Shown here in pieces: positions 34,963 through 64,000 of a stretch of 64,000 nucleotides of DNA. The notes below the pieces were generated by a model, which saw only the letters and a program-made list of their open reading frames with translations, was not told where the DNA came from and made no database searches. The DNA comes from Podospora anserina (Eukaryota), in assembly GCA_017654855.1 (NCBI GenBank), contig CM030332.1:6696001-6760000 (forward strand). Reading direction: 5' to 3'. Position 1 is the stretch's first letter; each line of letters begins with the position of its first letter. Made by a program: the position numbers and the translations under genes.

Positions 34963-37427
<2,465 letters not shown>

Positions 37428-55390: not shown

Positions 55391-55908
55391 ATGCATATTT
55401 CTCCACAAGAAGCCCACCACGTCGCCGTTCTTGCCGGCCAGGGAGAATGCGCCAAACTGGTGACAGCCGTCAAAGCTCTAGCGTTGCGAGAACATGAGTC
55501 GCCTGCCGACATCCTTATTGCTTGCAAGGACGACTTTCAACAGACAGCTGCGCATATTGCTGCAAAATCTGGGCAGTCAAGTGTGTTGACGCTTCCCTCT
55601 TGTCCGCAGCCGATACTAATATTCAAACAGAGTCCATCGACACACTATCCGATCTTTTGGATGACAATGAGAAAAGAGCAATCTATTTCAACATGGCTAA
55701 CCGTTTTTCCGGGGATCGGCCCATCCATACAGCCATGCGCCATGGGTATCTGGATGCCTTCAAAGCCTTGGTCAATCATGGCGCGGACCCGACCCTGAAG
55801 AATCGCTTTGGAGATGTCGTTGAGGACTATCCAGGTGACTTCGAGCCAGAGGAGGTATCACGAATTGTGGAGGAGTATAGGACTAAGGTGGACAAACTCA
55901 GGGCATAA
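55391..55908 (+). CDS. Small ankyrin-repeat protein; intron 55581-55630
   Basis: QQTAAHIAAKSGQ and GDRPIHTAMRHGYLDAFKALVNHGADPTLKNRFG; the intron joins the two ORFs in frame. Confidence 0.85.
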
Positions 55909-55951: not shown

Positions 55952-58061
55952 TCACAGCCACCAACTCCCGACAAAAACAGCCGCAACATAACCCATGAAC
56001 AGGGTATACAGTACCACAAAGTCCACCTCGAACAAAGACCACCTGACATGCTTTGCCTCCTCCGTTGGGTAACGCGCACCGTTTTCCTCCCGCTTTCCGA
56101 GAAGTCTGTCCCGCTCAGGTACGCTAGGCGGCCGGAGAGCGTACCTCAGCGGCGTCAAGCATCCCAACATGGTCGGAAACCAAAGATGTGATGGCCACGC
56201 TACTGTCTTGAGCAGCTCAATCCACATGTCCCTATTGAAAACCCAGTTGCCAGACATCCAATGCGGTCCGAGTACCCGGAATGCCTGGAGGGAGACACAT
56301 GAGGCAAATGCCAGCACGACGCTCAGTTGAACCCAGGCACCACAGTCGAAAAGGATATGGCGCAGCCGCTCGCGGAAAGGAGCACGGCGTGCAGGGTTCC
56401 GCTCTTGGAGGCTGTTGGCAATGCTCCCCGTTGGGGTGAATCCATCAGGCTTACCCAGGAAAAACGTCTTGAACCACGCAACAGTGTAATCTGTGTCATG
56501 TTAGCCGACGGTCCTTTCAAGAGTCTGGCGGACTTACAATGAGACATGTATCTCATCATACCCGTCTCCATGACTGCAACCCGGTACCCAGCCATCACAC
56601 CGATGTGGCAGTCATGAAGATAGCGTGTCAGGACAATGGCACAGTAAAGTCGAAGCAATAGCTTCATTTCCGCCTCGTCTCGCCAATACATCAGGTGCGT
56701 ACCAGTCAAGAACACAAAGGGCGTCAACAACATGAATACCGTGGCTAGCTGAGCCTTGGCGTGGACGTTGATACCGCTGGAGAAGCCGACCAACTTGGCA
56801 GCAAGGGTCATCCGCTTGGTCAGTTTGCTGGAGAGATATCCCTTGAAGTTGACAAACATCTGAGCTCCACCGATGTACTGCTCTCATCATTAGGACAGAT
56901 GACACCACACGAAAGTATAGGGGAACGTACCCATCGAGCAAATTGCTTCACATGAGCAGCATATGTTTCGGGAACCAGACCATACTGAAGCGACTCGGCC
57001 AGATAGGCAGAACGCCACCCCTCTGCCATCTGCAGCATGGAGCTGTAGATATCCTCGACAAGGCAGTCTGTAGGAAACCCACCGATATCGTCCACCGCCT
57101 CTCTTCGGACGACCCAGCCAGATCCGAGATTCCTGTCCAGTGTCAGTCGCTGGGCCCCAAGGCTTCGAGGGATTACTTACCAGCCGAGTCCGGCATGGTC
57201 CCTGATGATGTCCATACAAAGCCAGTTGATAGAACTCTGCTGATTCAGCGGGTCATTGTCCGGCACATTGTAGAACAATTGGGCAGGACAAACAACTCCC
57301 ATCTTGGGATCCCTGATCAGATGTGCAACACACGCCCTCAGCCACCTCTTTTCAGGAATCATATCAGCATCCAACCCAGCTACAAGCTCAGCCCGCCCAC
57401 CAGGCAGGGTGTCAGACACAGTAATTGCATGATTGAGGTTGCCAGCTTTGTACCCTGCCGGCCCATACTTGACACGCGCGGTGTAATACAAGTTGGGCGT
57501 GTCGGCGGCCAGCTGCAAAACCCAAGCCTCCAGCTTTTGGTTCCTGCCATCATCAGACACGATGACTCTGAACCGATGAGCAGGGTAGTCGATGTTGAGT
57601 GTAGCGCGAACGGTATCTTGGATGATGTCGAGCTTCTCGTTGCAGACTGGGATGATGATGTCCACGCACGGCACATTATCACCCAGTAACCGAAGTCTGG
57701 GCCGATACCGAGCAAACAAGGATGCTGCTTTGACCAAAGAGGCAGCGATTGCGTCGGCTGTGTGTAGGTTTCCAGTCAGTGTTCTGATCAAATCTTTCTA
57801 GGCACCAAGGATCGGCTTACCTGACCAGAGACCCTCAATGGCAAAAGCAAACCAAGCGAGATAGAGCTTGACTCCACCCAAGCTTCCGTCCTGTCCAAGA
57901 GCCAACAGGATCTCTCCCTGGATCTTGGAAGCCCATAAAAGCAGAAGGCAAGGGATGATGGCAGTCAAAAACACGAACCGGGTCAAGAATCGACGCACAG
58001 GCCCGAAGTTGGACTGGATTTGGTCGTATTCTTCGCCATTACCGATTTCAGTAACCACCAT
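55952..58061 (-). CDS. Processive GT2 glycosyltransferase, cellulose-synthase-like (at least 5 exons; 5' end uncertain, frame open to about 58270)
   Basis: VDIIIPVCNE, SDDG, KAGNLN, LDADMIP, AQLFYNVP, LVED, QFARW (QxxRW), FTPTG and C-terminal TM helices. Introns at 57758-57820, 57133-57180, about 56878-56930 and about 56491-56537 all restore frame. Confidence 0.9.
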
Positions 58062-59651
58062 GCAATCTGTGTCGGTGATGGTGTTGTCAAAGGTAATTGG
58101 ATTGCCCAAACTGTCCCAAAGAAGAGGAAGAGATGCTTTGGAGGTTGACAGAATGGATGATGTTGACTTGTTTCGGCCGTGAGAGGTTGGAAGGGGCGCT
58201 TTGGCCGCCTGCCTGAGGCGATAGTCGTCCTCTACCGGAGAGTGTATTTTGTACTTGAGACTAACATGAGAGTGTCAGATGACGGGAGGTATCTCAAGGT
58301 TTTAAGTGTCTACGGCTTCTAGGCGCTGCTCGACTTGCTATCCAACTTTTCATCGCGCTCCTCCACCGAGACCGGAACAGCACACGCCGGACGGAGAACT
58401 AGACGAGAGGTTCTGTTCCAGTCACCGGATAGACTCATCTCGACGCCATCGAGCTGTGCGTGATGCAGGTTGTGCCATCACACCAACGATTCACGCATAT
58501 CAGGGCAGGGTGTCAGAGTCTACGAGGCGCCAACAGGCGGAGACGGCGATAACGACCTGCCTGTCCCGGTGGTTTCCCGCGTCTCTCTGTCGGCACCAAA
58601 TTTCGTGATAGTAATGACTCGGACTTGACAACCAACTCCACCATTTCCTCCATTCTCGGCGGCATCCTCGGTCCTGACCCCTCACCTCCGCAGTCTGGAT
58701 TCTTCACCGCTACAATCGACAGAATCAAATGTCGACAGGAGGACATTCAAGAACCCACTTTCTGCAATAGAACCGCTTCATGCTACATAGGTATACATCC
58801 CATAACCAGCCACAGAGTTCCCACACGGCCCCTGCGTGCCGTAGCGGCCTGGAAATAAGAACTCTAAGTCAACCACCCTACACCCACCATTCCGGTAGGC
58901 TAGCCTTGACCCATGGCAGACGAACTGGTTACACAAGAAATGTCAGACGTTCAAAGGAATTGGTGGGATAACAGACTAGTCGAACGGTTGGATACCGGTT
59001 GACTGGCTGTGGCTGTCGTTGCCTCGCACACAGAACATGAGCTAGGATTCCTTCAAGAATGATGAATTCATGCACGTGGCTCAAAATATCGCAGGAACAC
59101 TAGAAAACAACAAGCAAGATCGAAAATTCACCAGGGATCGGTTAAAATGGAAATTTTCGAGGACACTACAACAACCCATGCCAGGATCACGATGGACCTA
59201 TGCATGCACCAGTTGCACTATTGACCCTTGATAAGTGGCAGCAAAGGATCAGTCACAGCTCGCCACCGAGCGGATCGTGAAAAAATTCAAGAAAACTGGA
59301 TGCGGGCCACAGATGGTGTGGGCGCTAGAGATTGTTGTTGTGGGCCAAGACATGGGGATAGATAGGGGTTCCATTCATGCAGCACAGTCTTGACAACACA
59401 ACCTGTTGCTATCATCTCCATATGGAATGCCAGTCTGGACCAACCGAAAAAGAGGAGATATTGCGCAATCTAATGCGAAGCAAAGATGTTTGAACAGCTG
59501 AGCACATCCATCATGGACCCTTGTTCACGCCCTTTCGTCTGTTTCGGATGAAGATGGACCTGTCTGACCTCTGCCTCGCCTCGTTCTTGGTCGGCTTTCA
59601 TGCCTGAAATCAAGCTCAACTCTTGAAGCTCTATGAAAGTAATTTACAGCA

Positions 59652-61254
59652 ATGTCAGGCCTAATCAAAATTGCCTCACTGGCAGTTGTGCTATTCCTGT
59701 TCCTAGCCCTCACCTTTCAGTTCCAGTTCAACACAAGCGTCTACGTCCTAGTACAGCAAAGACAAGAGCACGCAAACGCTAGAAACATTGGCCGGTGGGA
59801 ACAGAGCATACCCCTTCCCATCGTCCCTGTAGCTATTGCGGTGCTGCCAAGAACAGGCAAAGTCCTCGCCTGGGCTGCCGACAAGCCAAATGTCTTCTCT
59901 AACGCGACGACACATACTCTCTCCGTCATCTACGACCCATCAACGCACCAGGTCAACAATCAGAATGTCACCATCACACACCACAACATGTTCTGTCCCG
60001 GCCTCTCGCTCGACACCTCCGGACGGGTAGTTATTACAGGTGGCAGCACTTCGGATGCAACCAGCATCTATGACGAAGTCCAAGGGAGATGGCTTTCCGG
60101 CCCACCCTTGACTGTTGGTCGAGGGTATCACTCTCAAGCGACCCTCTCCGACGGACGCGTCTTTACCATCGGCGGTTCCTGGAGCGGTCCTCTGGGTGGC
60201 AAGAACGGGGAGATATTCGACCCCAACAAGCAAACCTGGACAGCCCTTCCAAACACCCTCGCAGAGCCACTCCTCACAAGCGACTTCCTCGGCCCCTTCG
60301 CAGGCGACAACCACGCCTGGCTCTTTGCCTGGAGGAACGACTCCGTTTTCCAAGCCGGGCCTTCCAGAGCCATGAACTGGTACGGGGTTTCCTCCTCAGG
60401 AGTCTGCCAACCCGCAGGTTCTCGAGGAAAAGACACCGATTCAATGAACGGAAACGCGGTGATGTACGACGCCCTAGCAGGGAAGATCTTGGCTGTGGGG
60501 GGTGCGCAGCATTATAACGACGCCGCCGCGACTAACGCTACCCACATCGTCACCCTCCCCTCCGACCCGTTCACCATGCCGCAGGTCCAGGAGCTAAAGG
60601 GGATGAAATATCCCCGAGCATACGCCAACAGCGTTCTACTCCCAACCGGCGAGGTTCTCATCACCGGCGGAGCAACATACGCGAAGCAATGGGCGGACGT
60701 CAACGCAACGCTCGTGCCGGAGTTGTTCAACCCTGACACGCTGACTTTCACACCGCTGGCCAAGATGCCCCATTCCAAGAACATATCACAGTGTTGCTGT
60801 GCTATTGCCTGATGCAACTGTGTTGACCGGGGGAGGGGGCTTGTGCTGGGAGAAGTGCTTGGGGCCGGAGGAGGAGATAAACCACTTGGATTTGCAGAGG
60901 TTCACACCACCTTATCTGCTGAGTGGAGATCCGCGACCAAAGATCCTGGAGATTTCCGACACTGAGGTGGATCTGGGAGGAGTGTTTGAATTGCTGGTAG
61001 GCGGGGAGGTGGCAGAGGTAGCGATGGTGAGGTACAGCAGTGCGACACATGCGATCAATACTGACCAGAGGAGGGTGAGGCTTGTTCCAACGGGGTTGGG
61101 GAAGCAGAAAGGGAGAGCGCTGCATAGAGTTGAAATTCCCGAAGACGGAGGGGTGGTGGTGCCAGGATATTGGATGGTCTTTGCCATCTCATCAGGGAAA
61201 GGGGGAATGAAGGTGCCATCAGTAGCAGAGACAATTTTGATCCGGGCAAAGTGA
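59652..61254 (+). CDS. Radical-copper oxidase, galactose-oxidase-like (AA5_2), no CBM32; +1 frameshift at 60768-60771 (sequencing error or pseudogene)
   Basis: HNMFCPG (Cys of the Cys-Tyr cofactor), RGYHS (Tyr), GGSWSG, DNHAWLF. RTYHSVAVLLPDA and ATHAINTDQRR (Cu ligands) lie in the next frame. Confidence 0.88.
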
Positions 61255-61269
61255 ATGAACACAAGTTTA

Positions 61270-63427
61270 TTAAAGCAAACTCCACTCGGACAAGGGCACT
61301 GGTGACGTAAAAGAACATTGCACCCCAGGCTCCGAAATCGGGCAGAAAATAACAGACACCGTCAAACTGCCTGGCGGAAGATCAACAGCCAGAACACTGA
61401 CCCCGGGGTTCGGCAGATCTTCTCGGCCACCTGAGAGAGGATGCAGCTTGGGTGACCGAACTGGCTTGGTAGTACGAAAGACTGCAGCTCGGGGTGACAG
61501 GAGTAGCACATCAAGAGCCTTTCCATTCAGGCGTAGATCTGATTATCCGTCGTTAACATCAAAGCAGCGAGAAGGGGTTGGAAAGGACACTCACGGGCTA
61601 TCCTCCCACTGTTACTGTATGTGATATGCGCTTTGGTATGCATTCGCCACTGACTTGTTTCCAACGCGTCAGTTATCTCGTCCTGTATCAACACCTTACT
61701 CCGCTCCGGGAGTAATCGAACTCCACGCTTGATGCTCATGCCGTCATATGCCTGGGTTAGATCCGCAATCCAAAAACCGCCAGCGTCGGTCTTGCCCTTG
61801 GTCTTCTGAGTGACCAGAGTGCTCTCAAACTTCACTGTTGGCTCAGCGTCAACAACCTGGTTTGAGTTGTTGTGGACAATCGTGTTTTGACCAGCTGTAC
61901 CGCAGCGGTAGTAGTCCCATCGGACACTGTCCTGATCTTCACTCGAAAAGTAACCAGGAGCATCGTAGCTGTCTTGGCATAGCTCTGTCGCCCATCGTTC
62001 TCCCAAGGCGTCCAGAACGAAATCACCGGCATCAAGATTGCCATCTGCCAAATATGTCAGTCGATGTTACTGCCTGGATGAAGGGTTGCTTTACGTGTGG
62101 CGTGTCCGGTCATCTTTCCTCCTTTCATGGCGACAAAGACACCATTAGAATCCGTCCAGGAAGATCTCAGTGATACCCAAGCGCCACTGGGGTCAGAGAA
62201 AGCCTTGTCCAGAGGCAGATGATCGTGCCATTCCCCCTTGAGAGAAGATTCATACCAGAGCATTGACAACGGATCAGCCGCATCAGGCCTGTCCCTCTGA
62301 AACAAACCATACTCAGGAATGCCGTACTCCCTCCCATAAAAGAATAGCGAATTCGCCGTAGCAGTAATCTTGGACGGACCGCAATCCCTATAATTGAACT
62401 TTTCCGTCATCCCGATATTATGAATATGAAACATGCCCGTCTCCCGAAACTTGGGATGGCTGTCCAACATCCCAAAGGTACTCCCCAACGATGTTAACAA
62501 CGCCGACGAAAGCTGTGCATGCGCCTGCGTCCCAAAATGCCAATAATCCGGCGTCTCAGCCCACGTCCCGCTCTCGTCAACACTCTTGCCACAGTGCTGC
62601 TCTGCGTTTTCCACCGCCCTCCCCAACAAGCTTCTCGCCACACCACTGGTGTCATCCCCCAACACCGCCAACGCCCCCACAATCATCCCACCCGCAGTAA
62701 CACAGTTCCAGTTCCCCGTCACCCCCAGAAACCACTCCTTCCTCTCAAAGCTCTCCAACCCCTTTCTCAGGCCTAAATCAACAACACTCCATCTTATCCC
62801 CTCTCTCTCCTCAGCTGTCCATGCGTCATAAAGCCAGTCATACGCAATCCCAAACGCGACCAGAAACTCGCCTACATCCAGCCAATGATCCGTGTTCCAG
62901 CTGTCGCCTGGCGTCCCAAACGAAGCACCGGTAGAGTTCCCGGCTGTGTGGACGATTTCTTTCCAAATGCGATCTTTCCACTTGGGGTCGTTGGTCAACC
63001 GGTAGGCGTAAGCCCAGTGCTTGATCCTGAGCTGGACAGTCCTCGCGATGTCGAGGATCCCACTCGTTCCGTCTTTTTTGTAGTCTGGAGGAGGTAAAGA
63101 GAGCATCTCGTCGGCTTGGCGGAAGATGGTTCTGTTCCACTTTGAAAGGTATTCATCACCTGGTATTTGGTCCGGAAGGGAGGCCCATTTTGACGTGTTG
63201 GCGAAGAGGCGGGGATGGGTGGGTTCAAGATGGTGGCCAAGAATCTGGATGGTGGCCTCTTCGTTGTCTGTACTGGCGGCGGTGGGCAGTGGCAATGGTG
63301 TCTGCAAGGTTGCAGTCACCAGCGACGACCGTAAATAAAACGTCAGGGTGATGGTCGACATCGCCAGTGCTGCTGCCACAACGACTGCCCCCGGTACTCG
63401 TGCGCGCGGAGAGGATTGCCAAGACAT
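61270..63427 (-). CDS. Heparinase II/III-like (alpha/alpha toroid + beta-sandwich) putative polysaccharide lyase with N-terminal TM anchor (3 exons; introns about 62045-62095 and 61539-61594)
   Basis: HPRLF, GILDIAR, HWLDVGE...IAYDWLYD, NWNCV, GTWAETPDYWHFG, spliced HGNLDAGDFVLDALGERWA, YYRCGTAGQNTI, WRMHT. Confidence 0.82.
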
Positions 63428-64000
63428 GGTGATAGCTTCAGATGGGTGGGCCCTCAAAAAGCAACCCTCTCAACCTTCAGCACCAGCTGGGAGATGACCG
63501 AAAGAATGATGCAAAACTCGGCAGGGAAAAGAGAGAAAACAGGCTTTTGCTCACGATCCGGCCATCCTTTCATCACGCGGTTCGTCCATTTACGACCCTC
63601 TTGCCATGTCGCTTCTCAGCTCTGCACGAATAGCCCCGTCTGTACTGCAGCAACACGCCACCCCCGGAGCCGCTCCCCGGACTGGTGTAACCGAACTTTG
63701 ATTCCTCCCATCCCCACTCGCCTTAACACCACGGGAAGTGGCGGTCACGATCCCGCGCGAACAAACATTTTGCTGATTCCGAGTTCCGGGAACAACGGTC
63801 TCGAGGTGCATCGGAGGATCGCATCAATGGCTGGCTTGCTGCGCCGGACGCTCCCTAGCACCTATGACGTGGCCGAGTGAGTACAAGTCGCGGGGGGTTC
63901 GTTTGCATTGTTCTACCATCGCGCCACAAGAAAAATGGGTTGGTGCTGGGAGGAATAACGCCGAGCTCGGCTTCAGCGGCCAACGTGGGAACGACATGGA

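Follow-up and report, generated by a model that had tools for sequence, protein, structure and literature searches.

A 64,000-nucleotide stretch of the Podospora anserina genome (contig CM030332.1, positions 6,696,001 to 6,760,000 of the forward strand; hereafter the window) contains three adjacent carbohydrate-active genes. They encode a processive GT2 synthase (Pa_1_18300 in the reference), an AA5 copper radical oxidase (Pa_1_18310) and a protein with the fold of PL35 lyases (Pa_1_18320 or PODANS_1_18320). The linkage of the three genes is conserved and exceeds chance, because it recurs across fungal classes, and it is likely that the three products act on one self-made glycan. Their chemistry is put more tentatively, at slightly under an even chance: GT2 makes a β-1,3/1,4-glucan, AA5 oxidises it at C6 to glucuronate and PL35 trims it, yielding a self-made, membrane-proximal acidic glycan. 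The probability left after this reading and the alternatives weighed below falls to mixtures and other chemistry.

The three families had been proposed in an initial annotation made from the sequence, and all were identified here by sequence and structure matches. The layout given there was also recovered. GT2 and AA5 are divergent across 1590 bp (58062..59651; about 1.5 kb had been stated), a candidate shared promoter, and the lyase gene is tail to tail with the oxidase gene, with the two stops 15 bp apart. Oxidase and lyase each carry one N-terminal hydrophobic segment, as described. An extension of the cluster beyond the end of the window, also raised there, found no support in anything observed. 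Gene structures, layout and linkage thus stood; the intactness of the oxidase did not, owing to an extra C and the resulting frameshift. Splicing was read from three runs (X15, X17 and X18), which are not on record as RNA but were taken as such and do show spliced joints. Contig depth in these RNA-like runs cannot rank genes, and missing cover of GT2 does not amount to absence.

Conserved linkage was assessed from three protein searches (best 120 matches of 906, 785 and 143). Accessions were looked up for 30 proteins in 15 genomes, picked where contig size or species agreed between the searches, a sample biased toward linkage in which the count is biased upward; all three genes had consecutive accessions in 11 of the 15, and linked pairs were found in the other four. 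The 11 genomes are those of four Podospora, Cercophora samala, Cladorrhinum sp., Lasiosphaeria ovina, Thozetella sp., Truncatella angustata, Periconia macrospinosa and Phaeosphaeria sp. Seven lie outside Podospora, and we take the set to span Sordariomycetes and Dothideomycetes. Three orders were seen: GT2-AA5-PL35 in nine genomes, AA5-GT2-PL35 in Phaeosphaeria and GT2-PL35-AA5 in Thozetella. The pairs were GT2 and AA5 in P. australis (adjacent) and Mollisia (four accessions apart), and AA5 and PL35 in Talaromyces marneffei (adjacent) and Xylogone (two accessions apart). By accession or presumed shared contig, a linked partner was found in 16 of the 20 named genomes with an AA5 of the clade described below, and for 12 of the 14 named PL35 rows of the corresponding clade.

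Co-location and phylogeny had been suggested as checks in the initial annotation, and both favoured it, each of the three proteins forming a dedicated clade. Clustered GT2s fell in a single 29-row clade (Shimodaira-Hasegawa-type (SH) aLRT support 98, 73-row tree) apart from a slower-evolving clade, a split that persisted after 81 representatives were added. Clustered AA5s formed one 45-row clade (SH-like support 99 in a 76-row tree; 100/100 in a 21-row IQ-TREE run). Clustered ascomycete PL35s formed a 14-row clade (support 95) beside rust sequences, and in a smaller tree the Xylogone PL35 fell immediately outside a core of 12 rows.

Among 80 metagenome AA5 loci, only L001 carried the active-site signature of the AA5 clade, and only L001 had both partners, in the layout of the window. 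Its GT2-AA5 spacing is about 1.1 kb against 1590 bp in the window, and no similarity or conserved DNA was found between the two spacers. PL35 was present at none of the 79 other loci, a control that is weak for fungi (only 20 of the 79 are flanked by 5 kb in each direction, and the majority look bacterial). Locus L078 showed a faint GT2 match near AA5. A bacterial ancestor cluster was not found: none of seven bacterial PL35 loci had an AA5 or GT2 neighbour, and a search of the Atlas added only bacterial heparinase II/III clusters. Two clostridial genome bins (L085 and L086) carry tandem arrays of 3 and 6 PL35-like genes.

The GT2 gene lies on the minus strand (55952..58061). Its model has five exons (58061-57821, 57757-57181, 57132-56931, 56880 or 56877-56538, and 56490-55952) joined across four GT..AG introns, with an open frame of 632-633 residues, a Pfam GT2 match and 98.6% identity to the P. 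bellae-mahoneyi orthologue (P0367). The signature motifs read initially (DDG, DAD, VED and QFARW) were all aligned to BcsA, with QFARW at an exon edge. Among solved structures, BcsA cellulose synthase came closest in sequence (E 1e-23) and was the top fold match (E 5e-21, template modelling score about 0.6) of a structure model of the orthologue (predicted local distance difference test score (pLDDT) 83). In that model the catalytic domain is flanked by membrane helices that form a channel, in keeping with the several transmembrane segments first noted. GT2 hyaluronan synthases showed the same fold on comparison.

The published AfTFT1 switch motif is found in the slower GT2 clade, with an exact match in Paecilomyces; AfTFT1 is not itself in the tree, and the TFT1 clade was recognised by this motif. 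The window GT2 is outside the TFT1 clade and its switch motif differs. Mollisia has both paralogues. The main text of a preprint describes the AfTFT1 product as a mixed-linkage glucan rich in units of degree of polymerisation (DP) 2, with DP2:DP3 near 3:1 (bioRxiv 10.64898/2026.09.17.752320). Judged by motifs and trees, the window GT2 is a divergent TFT1 paralogue with a changed switch region, and its product is likely a β-glucan. The basidiomycete Flagelloscypha sp. has a GT2 (P0271) that sits inside the group of clustered ascomycete GT2s, joined to a Xylariomycetidae sequence with support 100, a possible cross-phylum transfer. A related fungal-type GT2 is joined to a FAD-binding/BBE oxidase in one 1319-residue model (P0414); this could be an artefact of fused gene models or another case of a synthase paired with an oxidase. 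On the plus strand at 58093-58278, over the GT2 start and promoter, one X15 contig bridged a joint with a GT donor, an ACTAAC branch site and an AG acceptor; it was seen in one of the three runs, at low depth, and is possibly from an antisense transcript.

The oxidase gene (59652..61254, plus strand) is intronless and lacks CBM32. It aligned with galactose oxidase at E 5e-132 and lay close to fungal galactose oxidases (E 1e-132), with bacterial 'secreted protein' entries, which we take to be GlxA, far more distant at E 1e-25. Equivalents of Cys228, Tyr272, Trp290, Tyr495, His496 and His581 are present in the intact reference protein (533 residues). The Cys228-Tyr272 cofactor and the copper ligands are retained in all 45 rows of the AA5 clade. 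Arg330 and Gln406 are replaced in 45/45 and Phe464 is Trp in 45/45; the 31-row outgroup kept Arg330 in 29 rows and Phe464 in all. Compared with a galactose 6-oxidase of the FgrGalOx type, Trp290 is kept but Arg330, Gln406 and Phe464 are replaced. Arg330 is reported as needed for galactose activity and Phe464 as conserved in all characterised enzymes (PMC11267884), and the three positions are those targeted in engineering glucose-6-oxidase activity (PMC11611005). A strongly hydrophobic N-terminal 19-mer was found in 36 of 45 clade rows against 9 of 31 outgroup rows (medians 2.02 and 1.51; truncated models are included and rows are not independent), consistent with a signal anchor. From these residues the clade is predicted to consist of non-galactose AA5_2 copper radical oxidases. 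Among 535 proteins searched for fusions, the single finding was a Truncatella AA5-PL35 model, split in another annotation and probably a gene-model artefact.

In the window the oxidase occupies two frames. One extra C in the run at 60768..60771 (plus strand), overlooked when the gene was first taken as intact, shifts the frame to a stop at 60812. The product has 386 residues, the first 373 identical to P0361, and lacks the equivalents of Tyr495, His496 and His581, three of the four copper ligands. The extra C was found in DNA run X1; since the window may derive from that run, this is no independent confirmation. The base was absent from RNA-like runs X15 and X17, and X18 had no cover of the site. 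The window is probably from another isolate than the RNA-like runs, with an oxidase null allele, because all three runs share three substitutions and one indel relative to it. Alternatively, the extra C may be an error inherited from the window's reads. The genome paper lists 14 genes with programmed frameshifts (PMC2441463). Programmed frameshifting in the oxidase was ruled out, as the reference protein and the RNA-like contigs lack the extra base.

The lyase gene (61270..63427, minus strand) has three exons (63427-62095, 62044-61595 and 61538-61270) and encodes 684 residues with an N-terminal hydrophobic anchor. Both introns were spliced in all three RNA-like runs, and a protein search gave 100% identity between PODANS_1_18320 and exon 1. 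The initial label, a heparinase II/III-like lyase, held for the fold (an α-toroid with a Hepar_II_III β-sandwich) and was refined to PL35: the PL35 structures 8KHV, 8KHW and 9O3Q were the best matches by sequence (8KHV, E 1.5e-50) and ranked 1-3 by fold (model pLDDT 68). The triad N240/Y296/H446 corresponds to Asn192/Tyr246/His401 of GAGase II (numbering mapped through PMC12088678), and its Asn, Tyr and His are retained in 120, 119 and 118 of the best 120 fungal matches. PL35 enzymes are described as requiring polymers of D-glucuronic acid (GlcA) or mannuronic acid (ManA) and as cutting hyaluronan (PMC11262172, PMC12088678). The Mn site of GAGase II (His403/Asp405/Asp421/His457) reads Asn/Asp/Glu/Gln in the window protein and Asp/Asp/Glu/Gln in most fungal matches, and these altered ligands may form a different metal site. 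Most of the fungal PL35 matches listed (P0010-P0120) come from basidiomycetes and carry a hydrophobic helix at the N-terminus and an intact triad. Exophiala PL35s have a C-terminal hydrophobic tail resembling a glycosylphosphatidylinositol signal. Unspliced RNA-like contigs run from exon 1 to the window end (63427-64000) in all three runs, which suggests a long 5' leader of the lyase gene or an overlapping transcript; near 63570 all three have one more C than the window.

The module is patchy and shows signs of decay, namely the window frameshift and doubtful lyase models in L. ovina and T. setosa. Thozetella and Stachybotrys come together in the AA5 tree (100/99) and the PL35 tree (96/91). 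Approximately unbiased (AU) tests did not reject monophyly of the Sordariomycetes (AU 0.077 and 0.124) but did reject a clade of Sordariales plus Thozetella (AU 0.018 and 4e-5), a grouping named only after earlier trees had been seen. No weight was given to tree-distance correlations (r 0.74, 0.44 and 0.70), since common descent by itself yields such values. The trees would fit a cluster of old origin that was lost many times, with a degree of lateral movement or of hidden paralogy.

The proposed mechanism is as follows. By kinship to TFT1, GT2 would polymerise UDP-glucose to a β-1,4 or mixed β-1,3/1,4 glucan and extrude it through its own membrane channel. The anchored AA5, without the galactose-specific pocket residues, would oxidise glucosyl C6 first to the aldehyde and then to glucuronate, with release of hydrogen peroxide. 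A hyaluronan-like product would be expected because 1,3 and 1,4 linkages mostly alternate in TFT1-type glucan: oxidation of the 4-linked glucose would give -4)GlcA(β1-3)Glc(β1-, the hyaluronan backbone with glucose (Glc) replacing N-acetylglucosamine. The anchored PL35, to judge by its conserved triad, would cleave the β1,4 bonds before GlcA by β-elimination and so govern chain length or polymer release. In this isolate the C6-oxidation step would be lost through the frameshift. The oxidase is favoured as the uronate source because a uronate-dependent lyase lies beside a glucan synthase, the AA5 pocket is remodelled and no sugar-nucleotide dehydrogenase turned up in the flanking frames scanned. 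Flanking genes for a UDP-sugar dehydrogenase or epimerase had been suggested as a check, and none was found among the 33 flanking frames scanned. The initial interpretation, synthesis followed by C6 oxidation and trimming, thus kept its linkage and gained dedicated clades, but had no such flanking genes and had missed the frameshift. A broader proposal is more doubtful. The AA5 clade would be a natural glucan C6-oxidase that turns neutral mixed-linkage glucan, once polymerised and outside the cytoplasm, into a hyaluronan-like polyuronide with no need of UDP-GlcA; fungal PL35s, including those of basidiomycetes, would be dedicated remodelling lyases of such self-made acidic glycans, and the module would also have moved between distant fungi.

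An unlikely alternative is that GT2 takes GlcA directly from UDP-GlcA to make a hyaluronan-, cellobiuronan- or glucuronan-like polymer, which PL35 trims, with AA5 adding cross-linking aldehydes or supplying hydrogen peroxide, as proposed for Streptomyces GlxA. This would account for the lyase without new oxidase chemistry, and is consistent with the fold shared with hyaluronan synthases, the switch motif unlike that of TFT1 and the Hypoxylon GT2s, seemingly partnerless among the matches listed; the role of GlxA is worded only as 'possibly modifies' the glycan (PMC9040799). However, the closest characterised GT2 relatives use UDP-glucose, the flanking frames scanned hold no sugar-nucleotide dehydrogenase, and the AA5 sugar pocket, remodelled throughout the clade, points to a specific sugar other than galactose as substrate.

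Quite improbable is a catabolic pair, in which AA5 and PL35 break down, by oxidation and elimination, a glucan that is external or recycled, with GT2 more loosely associated. C6 oxidation of cellulose by a lytic polysaccharide monooxygenase (LPMO), possibly followed by β-elimination, has been proposed (PMC6391835). AA5 and PL35 are linked in T. marneffei and Xylogone, where no clade GT2 was found, are presumed to share a contig in S. elegans and C. caudatum, where again none was found, and have in common the odd Thozetella-Stachybotrys grouping. The adjacency of GT2 in 11 genomes and three orders argues otherwise, as do the anchored appearance of AA5 and PL35, neither with a binding module, and the Xylogone gap, which is exactly one unidentified gene.

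We hold it decidedly improbable that the PL35-fold protein is a C5-epimerase that converts oxidase-made GlcA to L-iduronate, like human dermatan sulfate epimerase, which has the same fold. Dermatan sulfate epimerase 1 (6HZN) was among the fold matches (E 1.8e-16), C5 proton abstraction is common to lyases and epimerases, and the membrane anchor and altered metal site also speak for this role. Bacterial PL35 lyases match far better by sequence and fold, the Asn/Tyr/His triad is that of lyases, and a literature search for fungal iduronate polymers found none. Finally, neutral synteny or chance adjacency of three unrelated carbohydrate-active enzyme genes, which patchiness, local decay and co-expression not demonstrated would allow, is extremely improbable and largely refuted by linkage that persists across classes with reshuffled order, by the cluster-specific clade of each gene and by the absence of PL35 from all 79 other AA5 loci.

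Several points weigh against glucan synthesis followed by C6 oxidation and trimming. Fungi commonly have an unlinked UDP-glucose dehydrogenase, and AA5_2 enzymes usually stop at the aldehyde. Glucose-6-oxidase activity has been engineered and is reported as never seen in nature (PMC11611005; see PMC9397409), and active-site residues are said to predict AA5 specificity poorly (PMC11267884). The oxidase is broken in this isolate. The GT2 product is uncertain because the switch motif differs from that of TFT1, and none of the GT2 introns was bridged in the three RNA-like runs, from which co-expression of the three genes was not demonstrated either. Two metal ligands needed in GAGase II, His403 and His457, are both replaced in the window lyase, and in the lyase model of L. 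ovina the catalytic Tyr and His are missing. Linkage is incomplete as well: a partner is on record for only 11 of 28 named rows of the GT2 clade; eight Hypoxylon GT2s have no Hypoxylon counterpart in the AA5 clade or PL35 among the best 120 matches of either search; and, among the matches listed, T. marneffei, S. elegans, C. caudatum and Xylogone showed no clade GT2, nor the basidiomycete PL35s a GT2 or AA5 partner.

The logic of polymerising, modifying and cleaving is shared with the Aspergillus galactosaminogalactan cluster and with Pseudomonas alginate and its AlgL. Those exopolysaccharide clusters modify by deacetylation, acetylation or epimerisation, whereas the three genes described here would do so by C6 oxidation; to our knowledge the galactosaminogalactan cluster shares no protein family with them. 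The analogy first drawn with Streptomyces cslA-glxA-cslZ (with lpmP) stood only as a functional one: there too a cellulose-synthase-like GT2 is accompanied by a copper radical oxidase associated with the membrane and by an enzyme that cleaves glycan (PMC9040799). In Streptomyces the glycan is laid down at hyphal tips, and development depends on it. A GT2 gene adjoining a membrane-associated AA5 gene was found at the fungal locus; a GlxA-type oxidase and a GH6 CslZ were not. The fungal oxidase falls in AA5_2, as its E-values against galactose oxidase and the presumed GlxA entries indicate, and the third enzyme has the fold of a uronate-dependent PL35 lyase, unlike CslZ, a GH6 hydrolase acting on peptidoglycan. 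The fungal genes are intron-bearing, eukaryotic and not in an operon, and no LPMO or Sco gene was seen beside them.

Aspergillus TFT1/CelA belongs to the same fungal GT2 lineage, with the same catalytic motifs and a homologous switch region; the window GT2 differs in its separate, faster-evolving paralogous clade, its changed switch motif and its travelling with an oxidase and a lyase, a cluster not mentioned in the main text of the TFT1 preprint (bioRxiv 10.64898/2026.09.17.752320), whose broader phylogeny may contain the window clade. The PL35 GAGases and chondroitinase (8KHV, 8KHW, 9O3Q) share fold and catalytic Asn/Tyr/His, but are bacterial, catabolic and Mn-dependent, whereas the window protein is fungal, predicted to be anchored and altered at the metal site. 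FgrGalOx and CgrAlcOx share the Cys-Tyr cofactor, copper ligands and Trp290 with the window clade, which is set apart by the lack of CBM32, a signal-anchor-like N-terminus, loss of Arg330 and Gln406 and the Phe464 to Trp change. Colletotrichum AlcOx is described in tandem with a peroxidase (PMC9770985), whereas the window AA5 is paired with a synthase and a lyase.

Other genes in the window were noted on both strands. A small ankyrin-repeat gene (55392-55908, plus strand), tail to tail with GT2, has one intron spliced in all three runs and no known membership in the module. Upstream of it are a small secreted-looking protein (54318-54632, plus strand), with one intron spliced in all three runs and no Pfam match, and a long Ser/Thr-rich membrane protein with a DUF3433 domain (49237-53050, plus strand). 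A glutamine:fructose-6-phosphate amidotransferase (35043-36854, minus strand) lies about 19 kb away among housekeeping genes such as a proteasome ATPase, and is probably unrelated.

The initial annotation knew of no fungal description of the three genes together, and none was found in the literature searched, subscription papers being outside its coverage; the one paper matched in one search gives a list of families only. Pa_1_18310 appears only as 'galactose oxidase' in a table of the genome paper (PMC2441463), and a term search of two Podospora lignin papers gave no treatment of it. An architecture of synthase, modifier and trimmer is already known; this combination and the chemistry it implies are apparently undescribed. 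With the module, three orphan clades of fungal enzymes together gain a function that can be tested. P. anserina lends itself to genetics, and the isolate sequenced here may be naturally null for the oxidase. If the proposed chemistry is true, it would be an undescribed fungal route to an acidic cell coat, would explain membrane-anchored PL35 lyases in fungi and would offer a eukaryotic parallel for the question of how GlxA acts on the Streptomyces tip glycan. Biocatalysts for glucose C6 have long been sought, and the engineered ones are weak; an AA5 that does this naturally would be such a catalyst and would open a new way to polysaccharides of uronic acids. The same chemistry would also point to an acidic surface glycan, so far unrecognised, among saprotrophs, endophytes and certain pathogens.

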